Shown one piece after another: positions 28,349-32,071 of a DNA stretch of 64,000 bases; within the stretch, counting starts at the first letter, position 1; every line of letters begins with the position of its first letter. The position numbers and the translations under genes are program-made. A model generated the notes under the pieces. The model saw nothing but the letters and a program-made list of their open reading frames with translations. It made no database searches and had not been told where the DNA came from. The stretch covers positions 171,805 to 235,804 of the forward strand of contig CAPECJ010000002.1 of NCBI GenBank assembly GCA_948603215.1, written 5' to 3'. The stretch comes from an uncultured Alistipes sp. (GTDB lineage: Bacteria; Bacteroidota; Bacteroidia; Bacteroidales; Rikenellaceae).

Positions 28349-29125
28349 ATGGCAGAGGTTGAGATAAAGGAGGAGAACAAAGTCTACGCGAAACCGCGTT
28401 TGATTTTGGATAATACGATGCACTATTGTCCGGGCTGTAGTCATGGCACGGTGCATAAACTGGTCGCCGAGGTCATCGACGAATTGGGACTTGCAGACCG
28501 GACGATCGGTGTTTCGCCCGTAGGATGTTCGGTTTTCGCCTACAATTACATCGACATCGACTGGGTCGAAGCGGCTCATGGCCGTGCTTTGGCGGTCGCT
28601 ACGGCGGCCAAACGACTCAATCCCGACCGGATGGTTTTCACCTACCAAGGCGACGGCGACCTGTCGGCTATCGGTACGGCCGAATCCATTCATGCAGCAG
28701 CCCGCGGCGAGAATGTCGTGGCGATTTACATCAACAATGCGATTTACGGCATGACCGGCGGTCAGATGGCCCCTACCACCCTGCTGGGTATGAAGACGGC
28801 GACGACGCCGTATGGTCGTGACCCGCGGCTGAACGGTTATCCTTACAAAATTGCCGAGATGATGGCTCATTTGGACGGTGCGACCTATATCACGCGGCAG
28901 AGCGTGCACAAACCGGCCAACGTGCGCAAATGCAAGGCGGCTATCAAAAAGGCATTCCAGCATGCGATGGACGGACAGGGATTTTCGCTGGTGGAGGTCG
29001 TTTCGACCTGTAACAGCGGCTGGAAGCTCTCGCCCGTGGCAGCGAACGAATGGATGGAGCAGAACATGCTGCCCTACTATCCGCTGGGCGATATCAAAGA
29101 CGAAAAATTGGATCCGACACGATGA
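28349..29125 (+). CDS. 2-oxoacid:ferredoxin oxidoreductase TPP-binding beta subunit
   Basis: YCPGC, HGRA, QGDGD...NN and YGMTGGQ motifs. Confidence 0.92.
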   Translation: MAEVEIKEENKVYAKPRLILDNTMHYCPGCSHGTVHKLVAEVIDELGLADRTIGVSPVGCSVFAYNYIDIDWVEAAHGRALAVATAAKRLNPDRMVFTYQGDGDLSAIGTAESIHAAARGENVVAIYINNAIYGMTGGQMAPTTLLGMKTATTPYGRDPRLNGYPYKIAEMMAHLDGATYITRQSVHKPANVRKCKAAIKKAFQHAMDGQGFSLVEVVSTCNSGWKLSPVAANEWMEQNMLPYYPLGDIKDEKLDPTR

Positions 29126-29667
29126 AAGAGACGTTGATTATAGCAGGATTCGGAGGACAGGGTGTCCTTTCGATGGGGAAGATATTGGCTTATTCTGGCG
29201 TGATGCAGGATTATGAAGTGACGTGGATGCCCTCATATGGGCCTGAGATGCGTGGCGGTACGGCCAATGTGACGGTCATTCTCTCCGACCGCAAAATTTC
29301 GTCGCCCATTGCGCACGAGTTCGATACGGCGATCATTCTCAACCAGCAGTCGATGGAGAAATTCGAGTCGATGGTGAAGCCGGGCGGCGTGTTGATTTAC
29401 GACACGAACGGCATCACGCGGCATCCCGTGCGGACGGATATTTCGGTTTACGCCATCGACGCTACGGCCGAATGCGCCAAGATGGGACAGGCCAAGTTGT
29501 TCAATACGATGATTTTAGGCGGTTATCTGAAAGTTTGCCCCGTCGTCGCAATGGAGAATGTGATGATCGGTTTGAAGAAATCGTTGCCTGAACGTGCTTG
29601 GAAGATGTTGCCTGCCAACGAGGAGGCTATCAAGCATGGAGGCGAGATTATCCGAAAAATCCGGTAA
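29122..29667 (+). CDS. 2-oxoacid:ferredoxin oxidoreductase gamma subunit
   Basis: AGFGGQG and SYGPEMRGG motifs; ATGA overlap with the beta subunit. Confidence 0.92.
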   Translation: MKETLIIAGFGGQGVLSMGKILAYSGVMQDYEVTWMPSYGPEMRGGTANVTVILSDRKISSPIAHEFDTAIILNQQSMEKFESMVKPGGVLIYDTNGITRHPVRTDISVYAIDATAECAKMGQAKLFNTMILGGYLKVCPVVAMENVMIGLKKSLPERAWKMLPANEEAIKHGGEIIRKIR

Positions 29668-29680
29668 TTGTTGATAGCAT

Positions 29681-29715
29681 GAAAAGGGCCCGACTTTTCC
29701 AGTCGGGCCCTTTTC
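29681..29715. terminator. Bidirectional intrinsic terminator
   Basis: GAAAAGGGCCCGACT-tttcc-AGTCGGGCCCTTTTC. Confidence 0.85.
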
Positions 29716-29717
29716 GT

Positions 29718-30107
29718 TTATTTTGCAGATGTATTTTCTTTCGGTTGGAAATCGATGTCATAGAATTTGAATTCGGGTTTCATCATTGCTCCGGTTGCAG
29801 CGTCGATACCCCACCCGAGTATGTCCAATAGGTTCAGGACTGCTACGGCATTGAAATTTTTGTCGATGATAATAGTCGCTGTTTCATAGGACGGAGCTTC
29901 AGCTTTTACGACTGTTTCATCGAATCCGCGTTTGATCTTGGTTGTATATGGGAATGTTACATTTGTGTGTTTCCTTCCGTCGATCGTCAGCGTCGCTTTT
30001 TCAGAAATGTCGCTGTTGAAAGTTACTTTTGTTTTTGAGCCGCAGAAAATGGTTGCACAAGAACTCATGGAAATAGCAGCAAATAAAATAAATCCGATAC
30101 GTTTCAT
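29718..30107 (-). CDS. Small lipoprotein (PEGA-like beta domain plus hydrophobic C-terminal segment), function unknown
   Basis: MKRIGFILFAAISMSSC lipobox; V-T-F-N-S...L-T-I-D-G...P-Y-T pattern; NLLDILGWGIDAATGA segment. Confidence 0.75.
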   Translation of the reverse strand: MKRIGFILFAAISMSSCATIFCGSKTKVTFNSDISEKATLTIDGRKHTNVTFPYTTKIKRGFDETVVKAEAPSYETATIIIDKNFNAVAVLNLLDILGWGIDAATGAMMKPEFKFYDIDFQPKENTSAK

Positions 30108-30172
30108 TTTTTGATAGCTTAAGTTTGTTAGTTTAATCAAGCACATAAAAAACGTAGGCTGAACTTTTTATC

Positions 30173-30291
30173 TGCTTTTCGAGGTCTTCGACTACCTGTA
30201 CGCCAAATAATGAGTAAAGCCCACGTAGAAACGTGAGCGTTCACACTTTACTCTTGACGTACTTTTGAAATTGTCGAAGTTTCGAAAAGCA
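30173..30291 (-). ncRNA. Putative structured 5' leader RNA (long imperfect hairpin), family unassigned
   Basis: Five nested stems: 30173-82/30282-91, 30186-92/30273-79, 30198-206/30254-62, 30212-19/30246-53 and 30220-26/30231-37. Confidence 0.6.
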
Positions 30292-30415
30292 AGAAATAAA
30301 GCTAACGCTTTTTATATGTTTGTGCCGGCGTTTTTAGTATGTGGACGGCACGGGGTGAAAATCGAAAGTCTGATCGTTATTTCTTCATAGGCAGATGATA
30401 TTAACGTTTCAGTCG

Positions 30416-30423
30416 CAAATATA
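30416..30423 (-). promoter_or_regulatory. -7 promoter element driving the structured leader and lipoprotein gene
   Basis: TATATTTG on the minus strand, about 310 nt upstream of the ATG at 30107. Confidence 0.55.
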
Positions 30424-30551
30424 AGCATTTTTGCACAGATAATTTCGGTTAGCTGCTGATTGTGCCCTCCGCGATAACTGTCTGAAATAAAATTCGCTCC
30501 TGCCATGCAATTCACACGGCGGGAGCGAATCGGTCTTCGTGCCGGAGTGGA

Positions 30552-31244
30552 TTACTCTACGGCTGCGCACTCGTTGACATACTGTTCGGCCAGTTTCGTC
30601 AGGGCGACGTCGGTCTTTTTCTCTCCGGCCAATATCTTCTCCAACATTTTCCGGACTTTCTTTTCGGGCAGATATTCTGCCAAAGCACACAGTGTACCGT
30701 AGGTCGCGATTTCGTAGTGCTCGACTTTCTGCGCTGCCAGAATCAACCCTGCATCCCGTACGAAACTGTTGCGCTTCGTGTCGGAAATGATTGATTCGGC
30801 CTCTTTCAACAGCCCGGCCATGGCATCGCATTTTTTGGCTTCGGGCTTCTCGCCCAACAACGAAAATATGGTTTCCAATTCAGCGATCTGTTGGTCACCT
30901 TCGTTGTAGTGTTTGTTGAATGCAGCCGATAATTGCTCCGTAGTGGAGGCCTTGCACATCTTTAGCAGCCCCTTTTTCAGATGCAATTCAGCCCAGTAGA
31001 TGTCTTTGAGTTCGTCAACGAAAAAGGTGTGGAAATCCGATTGTGCATCGCCGGTATATTGGCTTTTCTTTTTGGCTGATGCAGTCGATTTCATACCGGC
31101 GGCTGTTTTGGCTTTTGCCGTGGTTTTGCTCTTTACCGTATCGTCGGTCGTTTTGTAGTTGTCGCTCTTTTTTGAGGCGGCTGATTTGGCGTTGTGACCG
31201 GTGCCGGTTTTCGCCTCTTTGTCGTCGTTGTTGTACGTTTTCAT
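30552..31244 (-). CDS. Ferritin-like DUF892/YciF family protein with Lys/Ala-rich N-terminal extension
   Basis: ELKDIYWAE, KCDAMAGLLKE, AAQKVEHYEIATYG and E-KKTD...LA motifs. Confidence 0.9.
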   Translation of the reverse strand: MKTYNNDDKEAKTGTGHNAKSAASKKSDNYKTTDDTVKSKTTAKAKTAAGMKSTASAKKKSQYTGDAQSDFHTFFVDELKDIYWAELHLKKGLLKMCKASTTEQLSAAFNKHYNEGDQQIAELETIFSLLGEKPEAKKCDAMAGLLKEAESIISDTKRNSFVRDAGLILAAQKVEHYEIATYGTLCALAEYLPEKKVRKMLEKILAGEKKTDVALTKLAEQYVNECAAVE

Positions 31245-31372
31245 AACATGTGGATTTTGGTTTGTCGATTCAGTCGGCAAATAGCATACCACAAACATTC
31301 GTTTTGTATGATCTTTCCGGCCCGAGGCATCGTATTTGCAAGACCGGATAACGAAACAAACGTTACTGATTT

Positions 31373-32071
31373 ATGGAAAATAAAACATGCGCGATGCCGC
31401 TCATCGGCGATAAGGCTCCGGCTTTCGAGGCCGAAACGACGCAGGGAAAGATTCGTTTCCCGCAGGATTTCAAAGGGAAATGGGTGATTCTGTTCAGCCA
31501 CCCGTCTGATTTTACGGCGATATGCACGTCGGAATTCGTCCTTTTCGGGGCGATGCAACAGGAGTTCGAGGCGCTCGGTTGCCGATTGGTCGGACTTTCG
31601 GTCGGCACACTCTCCAGCCACATCGCGTGGCTGCGGTCGATTCACGACCGAATCGAATACAAAGGACATAAAAAGGTCGAGCTGAATTTCCCGTTGATTG
31701 CCGACATGTCGATGGAGGTGGCCCGCAAATACGGGATGATTCAGCCCGGAGCCAGCACGACGACGGCTGTACGATCGGTCTTTTTCATTGATCCGACAGC
31801 TACGGTGCGGGCGATCATCTGCTATCCGGCGCAGTTGGGTCGCAATTTCGATGAGTTGAAACGCGTGTTGGTCGGTTTGCAGACGGTCGACAAATATAAG
31901 GTGGCATTGCCTGCGGATTGGCGGCCCGGCGAGGATATCGTGGTTCCTGCGCCGACGACCTATGATGGCACGGAGCAATCGACCGACGGGATGAAATGCT
32001 ACGAATGGTACTTCTGCACGAAGCCGCTACCCGAGGTGAAAACCGAACGGCAGCAGCCAGTCGAAGCGTAA
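31373..32071 (+). CDS. Peroxiredoxin (AhpC/TSA, Prx6-like)
   Basis: LFSHPSDFTAICTSE, VRSVFFIDP, GRNFDE and PADWRPG motifs. Confidence 0.92.
   Translation: MENKTCAMPLIGDKAPAFEAETTQGKIRFPQDFKGKWVILFSHPSDFTAICTSEFVLFGAMQQEFEALGCRLVGLSVGTLSSHIAWLRSIHDRIEYKGHKKVELNFPLIADMSMEVARKYGMIQPGASTTTAVRSVFFIDPTATVRAIICYPAQLGRNFDELKRVLVGLQTVDKYKVALPADWRPGEDIVVPAPTTYDGTEQSTDGMKCYEWYFCTKPLPEVKTERQQPVEA

Follow-up and report, generated by a model that had tools for sequence, protein, structure and literature searches.

The window analysed here is a 64,000-nucleotide stretch of the genome of an uncultured Alistipes sp. (contig CAPECJ010000002.1, positions 171,805 to 235,804). Its minus strand carries a gene for a 129-residue lipoprotein (MKRIGFILFAAISMSSC..., positions 29718-30107), whose translated product has a lipoprotein signal and belongs to no Pfam family. 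Related genomes carry orthologues of this gene with the same leader (L011 and L013). The ATG at 30107 is located 309 nt from a Bacteroidota -7 promoter box (consensus TAnnTTTG), TATATTTG, at 30416-30423 on the minus strand, in agreement with an initial annotation of this DNA that had placed a promoter about 310 nt upstream of the gene. An inner TTATTTG was considered as a second promoter and rejected, since it is out of register with TAnnTTTG. The sequence itself shows, near the 5' end of the leader, a mini-ORF module, GCCU AUG AAG AAA UAA (30377-30392; ATG at 30388-30386, stop at 30379-30377), the tiny upstream ORF that had been noticed earlier. Further along, the MFE fold contains a short GC-rich hairpin, P0 (GUGCCG ... 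CGGCAC, 30322-30351), immediately 5' of a 177-nt hairpin of six helices, P1-P6 (30142-30318). This hairpin, the rod, is the conserved core of the family described below. A different GC-rich hairpin is found at the P0 site in other copies, where compensation was judged by eye in the alignment. An A-rich spacer (30108-30141) connects the rod to the start codon.

The leader is strongly structured on the strand of the gene. As minus-strand RNA it folds at -89.2 kcal/mol, compared with -57.9 +/- 4.8 kcal/mol for shuffled sequences (z -6.6; matched by none of 100 shuffles), whereas the folding z-score of the plus strand is -3.2. For the core alone, the energies are -70.5 kcal/mol on the minus strand and -54.4 kcal/mol on the plus strand. 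The initial annotation described five nested stems between 30173 and 30291. These stems are real, with exact 10-nt arms at 30173-30182/30282-30291 and exact 8-nt arms at 30212-30219/30246-30253, and correspond to P2-P6 of the rod. It also noted that two C-A mismatches on the plus strand, 30203/30257 and 30221/30236, become G-U pairs in the minus-strand RNA; this is correct, and both are paired in the MFE fold, which contains 10 G-U pairs in total. The structure is longer than first described: an outer helix, P1 (approximately 30305-30318 with 30142-30155), closes the rod. The 3' strand of P1 is ACG followed by six U residues (30152-30147), and a U tract thus lies directly after the complete structure. 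The earlier statement that no U tract follows the stem holds for the inner stems only, and the conclusion drawn from it, that the element is not a simple terminator, has to be revised: a conserved U6-7 tract closes the complete structure, and the 3' half by itself is terminator-like.

Comparison of related copies provided further evidence for the rod. A covariance model built in the present analysis, R1, scores about 190 bits on the sense strand and about 45 bits on the opposite strand; the window copy matches it over the full model length with 190.5 bits. In MAFFT alignment A1, 97% of the cells are paired and 22 pairs have changes on both sides, a number that none of 500 shuffles reached, although the significance of this and the other shuffle tests is overstated because the copies are related to each other. 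Among 99 further sequences, 95% of the cells are paired and changes on both sides occur in 38 of 49 pairs. The core is under selection as RNA on the strand of the gene, as had been proposed from the wobble pairs: the folding scores, the model scores and the strong covariation all agree on this point.

The family is uncatalogued, being absent from Rfam 15 and having no published description that we could find. A cmscan of positions 29000-31500 with E values up to 10 returned no Rfam 15 family at its gathering threshold; at the hairpin it gave only noise from microRNA models (21-27 bits, against thresholds of 100-140). This accords with the earlier failure to name an Rfam family. No matching description was found in the Breaker-lab motif papers or the B. 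thetaiotaomicron transcriptome papers. At the level of description, nothing matching was found either in a catalogue of structured RNAs from the human microbiome (PMC8040213), which includes 'palindromic' Bacteroidetes candidates. Homologues number in the hundreds, and the R1 model detects copies in four orders of Bacteroidota, with 13 loci in the source Alistipes-type genome, about 27 in an Alistipes senegalensis assembly and 6 in Alistipes putredinis DSM 17216; overall, 5 to 27 genes per genome carry a rod-shaped leader. Copies within one genome are only 71-75% identical, and are thus old and separately maintained. GenBank phages yielded a single partial match of 39 nt, and a motif scan of IMG/VR yielded 4 contigs, of which the model confirmed 3, so the family is not mainly a phage element.

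The genomic setting of the copies is highly consistent. Of 159 members, 131 have a TAnnTTTG box in the 200 nt that precede them, and such a box hardly ever occurs within the element or beyond it. Downstream of the rod, an ORF in the same orientation begins within 140 nt in 114 of 132 cases, compared with 22 of 132 in the mirrored test, and rod and ATG are most often 40-60 nt apart. On the upstream side, the neighbouring gene is frequently divergent. Among the downstream genes, 49 of 60 begin with a signal-peptide-like sequence, compared with a genome background, permissively estimated, of 39%; in a larger set, 111 of 138 do so. The proteins belong to unrelated Pfam families. Paralogues share promoter, upstream ORF and hairpin modules ahead of unrelated lipoprotein genes. 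This fits the earlier suggestion of a mobile cassette that travels with small accessory genes, and the suspected recurrence of such leaders before accessory genes in Bacteroidales is borne out by homologues that lie consistently between a promoter and a co-oriented gene. The initial annotation had named an absence of homologues and covariation as grounds for giving up its proposal of a cis-regulatory RNA; both were found in abundance, and together with the strand bias and the position between promoter and gene they support that proposal. The other roles offered by the initial annotation, an antisense target and an RNase III substrate, gained no support here, although the genome does encode RNase III. 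The window copy itself has the promoter, the co-oriented lipoprotein gene and a six-helix rod with compensatory changes. We read the region as the leader at the 5' end of the lipoprotein mRNA, and it belongs to a large family of rod-shaped Bacteroidota leader RNAs. The family does not have the character of a riboswitch, a ligand-binding aptamer with a multi-helix junction or pocket that serves a single class of metabolic genes: R1 has 0 branch points and the downstream genes encode functionally unrelated surface proteins.

The two halves of the core can also fold separately. The 5' half alone forms a hairpin, HP-5' (30236-30309, minus strand; GCGUU/AACGC, GCUUUA/UAAAG, GAAA/UUUC), with an energy of -17.9 kcal/mol in the window copy; it is present in the MFE of 31 of 32 copies and has a mean folding z-score of -2.5 over 163 copies. 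The 3' half alone forms a terminator-like hairpin, HP-3' (30152-30226, minus strand), which has ACGUGGGCU/AGCCUACGU as its base and contains an inner hairpin, AGGU(30197-30194)/ACCU(30185-30182). HP-3' has an energy of -25.2 kcal/mol in the window copy, is seen in all 32 copies and has a mean z-score of -3.6 over 163 copies; in 160 of these, the 3' half pairs CGUGGG with the segment just 5' of the U tract. RNAalifold returned no structure on either half of the model-fitted alignment because the insert columns are unaligned, and the pairs of the alternative fold were therefore written by hand from the consensus and then counted. In this count, 90.8% of the cells of the twin-hairpin structure are paired, on an alignment fitted to the rod and not to the twin fold. 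Changes on both sides occur in 22 of its 34 pairs, compared with 10.3 +/- 2.1 in shuffles and reached in none of 500, although complementarity in the twin fold follows partly automatically from the rod and one alternative hairpin, and independent evidence comes only from pairs whose nucleotides lie in loops of the rod. Such pairs covary. AGGU/ACCU, unpaired in the rod, changes to GGGC/GCCU in 5 sequences and never to a C-A mismatch, and GAAA/UUUC, likewise unpaired in the rod, changes to AAAA/UUUU four times. Alignment A5 had little covariation for the alternative fold at ACCUC and P6, bases that its search pattern had fixed, and alignment A6 was therefore used instead. A pairing of the P6 3' arm alone with the 3' end was rejected, as it has no covariation in the 32-sequence set. 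In a crude simulation of co-transcriptional folding, the apical hairpin P6 forms first and the rod is reached at barriers of 9-11 kcal/mol; the full base helix of HP-3' did not form in this simulation. Taken together, mutually exclusive terminator-like and antiterminator-like pairings are present in silico, with covariation in both, and at this level the core has two conserved folds that exclude each other, the long rod or HP-5' plus HP-3'.

The tail of the element resembles that of an intrinsic terminator in several respects. The GC-rich base of HP-3' is followed by the U6 tract (30147-30152, minus strand, read directly in the sequence), which lies directly 3' of the base of both folds and ends 39 nt from the ATG; across the family the tract is U6-7. 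Among 166 copies, the 3' T run has a mean length of 6.1 and its 5' A-run partner one of 4.3. In 143 copies the T run exceeds its partner in length, and the U run has at least five residues in 156. HP-3' differs from a compact terminator hairpin in its length of about 75 nt and its internal loops, and it was absent from the output of a simple consensus terminator scan. From its shape alone, we infer that transcription may terminate at the U tract.

The mini-ORF module, GCCUAUG with 1-4 sense codons after it and then a stop in frame, occurs in nearly all copies from the bacterial family of the window. Its codons are not conserved. The first ATG is followed by at most three sense codons in 30 of 40 copies, compared with 9 and 7 of 40 when the two remaining frames are read; in a larger set, at most two codons follow in 52 of 93 copies, compared with 24 and 18. 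Judging from these frame counts, the mini-ORF is under selection for an early in-frame stop. In 7 copies it is replaced by AAGGAGG without an ATG, a motif that resembles the STAB-SD stabiliser of cryIIIA mRNA. The mini-ORF is missing in some subfamilies and is therefore not a universal sensor. Its stop lies at a variable distance from the core, 28 to about 80 nt, often with P0 in between. In the window, the mini-ORF tail could form 9 bp with the rod's 5' strand (AAGAAAUAA with UUAUUUCUU, inverted repeat I2), but this pairing was rejected because its mean z-score over 79 copies is +0.19 relative to composition-matched shuffles. In the MFE folds of 19 complete leaders, the invariant GCCUAUG does not pair consistently with any one segment. 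The AUG is located 22-32 nt 3' of the -7 box, which matches the commonest 5' UTR length in B. thetaiotaomicron, 23 nt (PMC7366714).

Combining these observations, we favour, with roughly even confidence, a cis-acting leader with two states that is probably a transcription attenuator. In this model, transcription would start at the housekeeping-type promoter TATATTTG, and the mini-ORF AUG AAG AAA UAA, which occupies the usual place of a start codon, would be translated. RNA polymerase would then proceed through the P0 GC hairpin, the 177-nt core and the A-rich spacer of about 40 nt to the start codon. If the two halves of the core fold separately, HP-3' would halt the polymerase ahead of the gene. 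Pairing of the 3' half with the 5' half would instead trap the terminator's 5' strand in the rod; the polymerase would then read through, and the rod may persist as a stable 5' structure on the mRNA. The choice between the folds could be biased by ribosome occupancy of the mini-ORF or by a shared RNA-binding factor that recognises the invariant GCGUUAGCUUU.

Four-segment transcription attenuators of the trp, pyrBI and PyrR types are among the systems closest to the proposed mechanism. Like the present family, these are promoter-proximal, pair segments A:B and C:D (terminator) or B:C (antiterminator), and have a U tract after the terminator and a short ORF upstream. A leader-peptide attenuator has an ORF that overlaps the first pairing segment and contains regulatory codons, whereas the mini-ORF here has only 2-5 codons, which vary, and its stop is 28 nt or more 5' of segment A. 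A further difference lies in the fold for read-through, an end-to-end rod in which A:D pairing exists as well, and the family is found in multiple copies before unrelated genes for exported proteins, not in one biosynthetic operon.

The main alternative is that the leader is a constitutive stabiliser of the mRNA and contains no switch. The rod and a ribosome on the mini-ORF would shield the 5' end of an abundant mRNA for an exported protein against 5'-end-dependent RNases, or RNase III would cut the rod and yield a mature mRNA with HP-3' at its start. No other fold approaches the stability of the rod (-70.5 kcal/mol), the crude folding simulation ends in the rod, and it is close to the 5' end in all three architectures, including the one in which the promoter directly precedes it. 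AAGGAGG in the place of the mini-ORF is consistent with a stabiliser, as are the genes for RNase Y, RNase E/G and RNase III in the genome. RNase J, the classic target of ribosome-based 5' stabilisers, was however not found in the source genome, which is 92.6% complete. A stabiliser would also require neither near-invariant loop sequences, nor a conserved second fold with covariation, nor a U tract longer than its pairing partner. This explanation is possible, although in our view somewhat doubtful. The E. coli ompA leader, the Bacillus cryIIIA STAB-SD and the ermC leader are 5' UTR stabilisers that resemble the family in having a structure, a bound ribosome or both close to the 5' end of an abundant mRNA for an exported protein. 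Unlike the family, they are single-gene, short, not bistable and without a conserved terminator-like alternative fold. The mini-ORF could instead belong to a translational device, in which ribosomes load at the mini-ORF, terminate and are passed across the rod base to the main start codon about 40-50 nt further on. The order of elements (a mini-ORF of 2-5 codons, an elongated hairpin and a main ORF, with a gap peak of 40-60 nt), the location of the mini-ORF AUG at the usual promoter distance of a translated start and the SD-like AAGGAGG that takes its place in a few copies all agree with this, and such a device would be of use where, as in this phylum, Shine-Dalgarno pairing is not employed. 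The layout recalls the leader of cauliflower mosaic virus 35S RNA, in which a very short upstream ORF precedes an elongated hairpin with the main ORF near its base and ribosomes shunt by a eukaryotic scanning mechanism; we know of no bacterial precedent. In that leader the distance between short ORF and stem is fixed and short, whereas here it varies between 28 and about 80 nt, with P0 frequently lying within it, and many copies lack the mini-ORF altogether. Since it also leaves the U tract and the twin-hairpin fold unexplained, we consider this explanation improbable.

Two further explanations separate the element from the gene. An independent gene for a trans-acting small RNA, made up of the promoter, the rod and a terminator of its own, with the downstream gene expressed separately, would account for the promoter and the terminator-like 3' end. 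The co-oriented gene within 140 nt of 114 of 132 copies argues against it, and no conserved single-stranded seed region is apparent. Moreover, a promoter box is almost never present between rod and gene, and the gene therefore depends on read-through. An independent small RNA is thus distinctly unlikely. A selfish palindromic DNA repeat of the MITE or REP type, with no function as RNA, would be consistent with a palindrome that occurs in many copies (13 loci here and about 27 in the A. senegalensis assembly), often near contig ends in fragmented assemblies. Such a repeat would not be expected to have the strong bias in orientation and position (114 versus 22 of 132), the strand-specific G-U pairs and model scores, the compensatory changes that preserve pairing and not sequence, or the low identity among copies within one genome, and it is very improbable as an explanation.

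Other leaders and small RNAs of the same phylum can also be compared with the attenuator-like family. The tetQ leader of CTnDOT encodes a three-residue peptide. The tetQ-rteA-rteB operon of this Bacteroides element is transcribed constitutively and controlled by translational attenuation in its leader (PMC3809561). It is like the family in its phylum and in exerting control within the leader; unlike the family, it senses tetracycline and controls the translation of one operon, whereas the present family, compared here by description, is phylum-wide and has a terminator-like fold. The FopS/GibS and BTnc020 RNAs are multi-copy as well, have canonical sigma-ABfr promoters and are tied to the regulation of outer-membrane proteins (PMC11697453). 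The FopS RNAs are trans-acting and 65-70 nt long, with a single-stranded seed and a simple terminator (PMC11697453). FopS/GibS RNAs are in Rfam, whereas the window element is 177 nt long, fully paired and without an Rfam match, and is distinct from them; the BTnc020 family, unlike the rod leaders, adjoins transposases. BTnc198 (369 nt) and BTnc262 (319 nt) of B. thetaiotaomicron are intergenic sRNA candidates that are long and strongly folded (PMC7366714, supplement). The rod-leader family may explain some of the 'intergenic sRNAs' of this kind in the transcriptome maps of that species.

The rod-shaped leader family merits an Rfam entry, and it provides a testable system: its two folds are defined, its tail is terminator-like, its mini-ORF is optional, and it occurs in strains that can be cultivated, such as A. 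putredinis DSM 17216. Bacteroidota dominate the gut microbiota, and their post-transcriptional control is poorly known. To our knowledge, they do not use Shine-Dalgarno pairing and are without Hfq, ProQ and CsrA. With 5 to 27 leaders per genome, mostly ahead of genes for exported or surface proteins, the family would define a cell-envelope regulon that acts after transcription initiation. We put forward tentatively, as a possibility short of a likelihood, that this regulon extends across the phylum and that a shared input, either ribosome traffic on the mini-ORF or an RNA-binding factor on GCGUUAGCUUU, sets the folding of its leaders. If so, read-through or translation of otherwise unrelated lipoproteins, outer-membrane beta-barrels, fimbrillin-like proteins and T9SS sorting-domain proteins would be coordinated, and the family would fill the place in envelope control that is held in Proteobacteria by sigma-E-dependent small RNAs or CsrA. 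A conserved multi-copy leader whose downstream genes mostly encode exported and surface proteins would rank among the major regulatory elements of the cell surface, which in Bacteroidota is what hosts, phages and competitors see.

The leader lies on the minus strand between a DUF892 gene (30552-31298, minus strand), its upstream neighbour, and the gene of a 129-aa lipoprotein (MKRIGFILFAAISMSSC..., ATG at 30107), for whose product a domain search returned no Pfam family. Directly 3' of the DUF892 gene, a minus-strand hairpin at 30492-30530 (AUUCGCUCC...GGAGCGAAU, then UUUUAUUU) is probably the terminator of that gene, insulating the leader's own promoter. The leader's elements, all on the minus strand, are a -7 box read from the sequence (TATATTTG, 30423-30416), a mini-ORF module (GCCU AUG AAG AAA UAA, whose start codon begins at 30388 and whose stop codon ends at 30377), a GC hairpin (GUGCCG...CGGCAC, 30351-30322) and, downstream of it, a long hairpin of six helices, P1-P6 (30318-30142), which we call the rod. 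A U6 run (30152-30147) is followed by an A-rich spacer up to the start codon. Where the U tract ends, an AUG (30144-30146, UUUUUUAUG) within the extended P1 shares the reading frame of the lipoprotein ORF, with no intervening stop (ORF 29718-30146); a few other copies also carry an in-frame AUG there (gap -5), at about chance frequency. A strong 17-bp GC-rich hairpin (29679-29717), flanked on each side by A and U runs, separates the lipoprotein gene from the convergent oxidoreductase gamma-subunit gene; it is a textbook bidirectional terminator and produced weak Rfam matches to Thr_leader and others that were rejected as spurious.

The rod is an RNA structure on the strand of the gene. The initial annotation had proposed a structured leader before the small lipoprotein gene, and folding confirmed it (-89.2 kcal/mol, z -6.6 on the gene strand versus z -3.2 on the opposite strand). 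Folded by itself, the core reaches -70.5 kcal/mol as minus-strand RNA, compared with -54.4 for the plus strand. Both G-U wobble pairs that the annotation named on the minus strand are correct. The hairpin it reported is present but extends further, to an outer closing helix, P1, whose end is the U tract. Covariation, one of its suggested checks, is evident in A1, a MAFFT alignment of 32 copies: 97% of the cells are paired, against ~40-49% in slid controls, 151 cells have changes on both sides, and 22 of the 49 pairs show such changes, which none of 500 shuffles matched. In A5 (99 further sequences), which was fitted to the covariance model R1 and is hence biased towards the rod structure, 95% of the cells are paired and 38/49 pairs are compensatory, including all eight P1 pairs. 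Many copies have G-U at several rod pairs, where the opposite strand would give C-A, and R1 scores ~190 bits in sense versus ~45 bits in antisense.

The rod has conserved loops, and its two halves can also fold separately. The 5' half alone forms a hairpin, HP-5', in 31/32 copies (GCGUU/AACGC, GCUUUA/UAAAG, GAAA/UUUC). The 3' half alone forms another, HP-3', in all 32; its base, CGUGGG(C)/(G)YCCACG, is followed at once by the U tract, and its inner stem, AGGU/ACCU, is capped by a loop consisting of the P3 3' strand. Over 163 copies, the separate halves are significantly structured (mean z -2.5 for the 5' and -3.6 for the 3' half), and in 160 of them HP-3' has its closing base at the U tract. 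In alignment A6, whose fitting followed the rod rather than the twin-hairpin structure, 90.8% of the twin-hairpin cells are paired versus 43-54% when slid, and 22/34 pairs have both-side changes versus 10.3 +/- 2.1 in shuffles (0/500 as good). The cleanest evidence for this second fold comes from changes at nucleotides left single-stranded by the rod. In AGGU/ACCU, U-A is replaced by C-G in five sequences and by U-G in three, and by C-A in none. In GAAA/UUUC, G-C becomes A-U in four sequences; in at least one of them (L060), the rod partner of the same G has also changed, from C to U. The 7-nt P3 strands form the apical loops of both hairpins, so their first contact could be a kissing complex. 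In 143/166 copies, the U run at the 3' end (mean 6.1) exceeds its A-run partner (mean 4.3), so its conservation serves more than pairing. These in silico results show a strand-specific RNA that lies in cis and has two conserved folds that exclude each other, with a 3' hairpin shaped like a terminator.

The leader has no match in Rfam 15, and the recurrence expected by the initial annotation was borne out by BLASTN with the core, which found homologues in 101/201 genomes of the same bacterial family (23/31 genera). Two paralogues in the window's genome have diverged to 75% and 71% identity; one has the same promoter, uORF, GC hairpin and long hairpin, and precedes a different small lipoprotein gene. 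R1, built from the 32 copies of A1, found copies in 48/151 genomes sampled across the order, under strict filters and with just 18 candidates scored per genome. A motif scan of named genomes, with R1 as the second step, identified full-length copies in Alistipes putredinis DSM 17216, Odoribacter, Dysgonomonas termitidis, Tannerellaceae, Prevotella, Lentimicrobiaceae and Prolixibacteraceae, and rods on three IMG/VR contigs. Outside Bacteroidales, R1 confirmed copies in Flavobacterium, another Flavobacteriales genome, Cryomorphaceae, Mucilaginibacter and Catalimonadaceae; pattern matches in Deinococcus, Streptomyces, Myxococcales, Methylomirabilota and Hymenobacter were unconfirmed by R1, as chance matches would be. 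In the window's genome, R1 finds 13 loci. Counting R1 matches at E of 1e-4 or better, A. putredinis DSM 17216 has 6 loci (7 matches, one a reverse-strand duplicate), an A. senegalensis assembly has about 27, D. termitidis has 5 and one Flavobacterium has 2. The top scores among named relatives belong to Alistipes and Rikenellaceae. In three very fragmented assemblies of the order-wide sample (G215, G242, G275), many copies are found 200-600 nt away from the end of a contig. Blocks of leader plus gene start may be near-identical repeats that break these assemblies, and copy numbers there may therefore be underestimated. Tandem arrangements occur: at L068:1280-1663, 38 nt separate two back-to-back rods, and at L073:1245-2546 each of two adjacent paralogous genes is preceded by a rod.

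A co-oriented ORF (>=60 aa) starts within 140 nt 3' of the rod in 114/132 cases, compared with 22/132 in the mirrored test, and the gap to the gene peaks at 40-60 nt. A TAnnTTTG box is found at most 200 nt upstream in 131/159 copies and almost never within or after the element. The upstream neighbour gene is often divergent, so the rod belongs to the downstream gene. Products begin with a signal-peptide-like hydrophobic core in 49/60 cases, and in 111/138 of a larger set, against a background of 39% for this crude, permissive test over all long ORFs of the window's genome. They are otherwise unrelated, with T9SS sorting domains, OMP beta-barrels, lipocalin-like and fimbrillin-like proteins and LRR, BACON and PEGA domains; a few are cytoplasmic or mobile-element proteins. 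Behind one paralogous leader (L002:1799-2229, contig C4 of the window's genome), the lipoprotein gene is split near an A7 run (about 1941-1947): a 56-aa ORF with a signal peptide ends and the remainder is in another frame, which may represent a pseudogene or a slippage switch.

The mini-ORF module looks like a ribosome-binding site, but it is optional. Nearly all copies from the same bacterial family, and a scattering of others, have an invariant GCCUAUG 22-32 nt after the -7 box; 1-4 variable codons and then a stop in the same frame come next (peptides such as MKK, MRK, MDI, MNR, ME, MVK, MR, MM and MA). For the invariant (U)GCCU before the AUG (30389-30395 and homologous positions), we found no pairing partner or explanation. 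The first ATG after the box opens at most 3 sense codons in 30/40 copies versus 9 and 7 in the other frames, and at most 2 codons in 52/93 copies of the 159-rod set versus 24 and 18. Its position is that of a normal start codon; in B. thetaiotaomicron the commonest 5' UTR is 23 nt (PMC7366714). Another subfamily carries AAUGACAUAA, and in seven copies AAGGAGG without an ATG replaces the mini-ORF. Since the phylum generally lacks SD pairing, such a perfect Shine-Dalgarno-like AAGGAGG upstream of the rod with no ATG nearby (for example L051, L052, L057 and L069) is odd. In other copies, including six from the window's genome, the promoter directly abuts the rod.

We found no published description of this family. 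A human-microbiome catalogue of candidate structured RNAs mentions palindromic Bacteroidetes candidates that are themselves predicted terminators (PMC8040213). FopS/GibS and the BTnc020 family, known multi-copy Bacteroides RNAs, are unlike the rod leader in size, shape and context. Four-segment attenuators follow a similar logic but differ in their leader ORF and in the full rod.

We infer, with the chances about evenly balanced, that the leader may act as a transcription attenuator. Several observations weigh against this reading: HP-3' is long and interrupted, and was not called by a simple terminator scan; a crude simulation of folding preferred P6, followed by the rod; and the mini-ORF pairs with the core no better than chance and is missing in some subfamilies. 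The main competing reading, a constitutive element for stabilisation or processing, appears rather unlikely; the window's genome has genes for RNase Y, RNase E/G and RNase III, and RNase J was not found there. We give less weight still to a shunt-like translational device, an independent sRNA or a selfish repeat. If the leader is an attenuator, the twin-hairpin fold would lead to termination before the gene and the rod fold would permit read-through into it.
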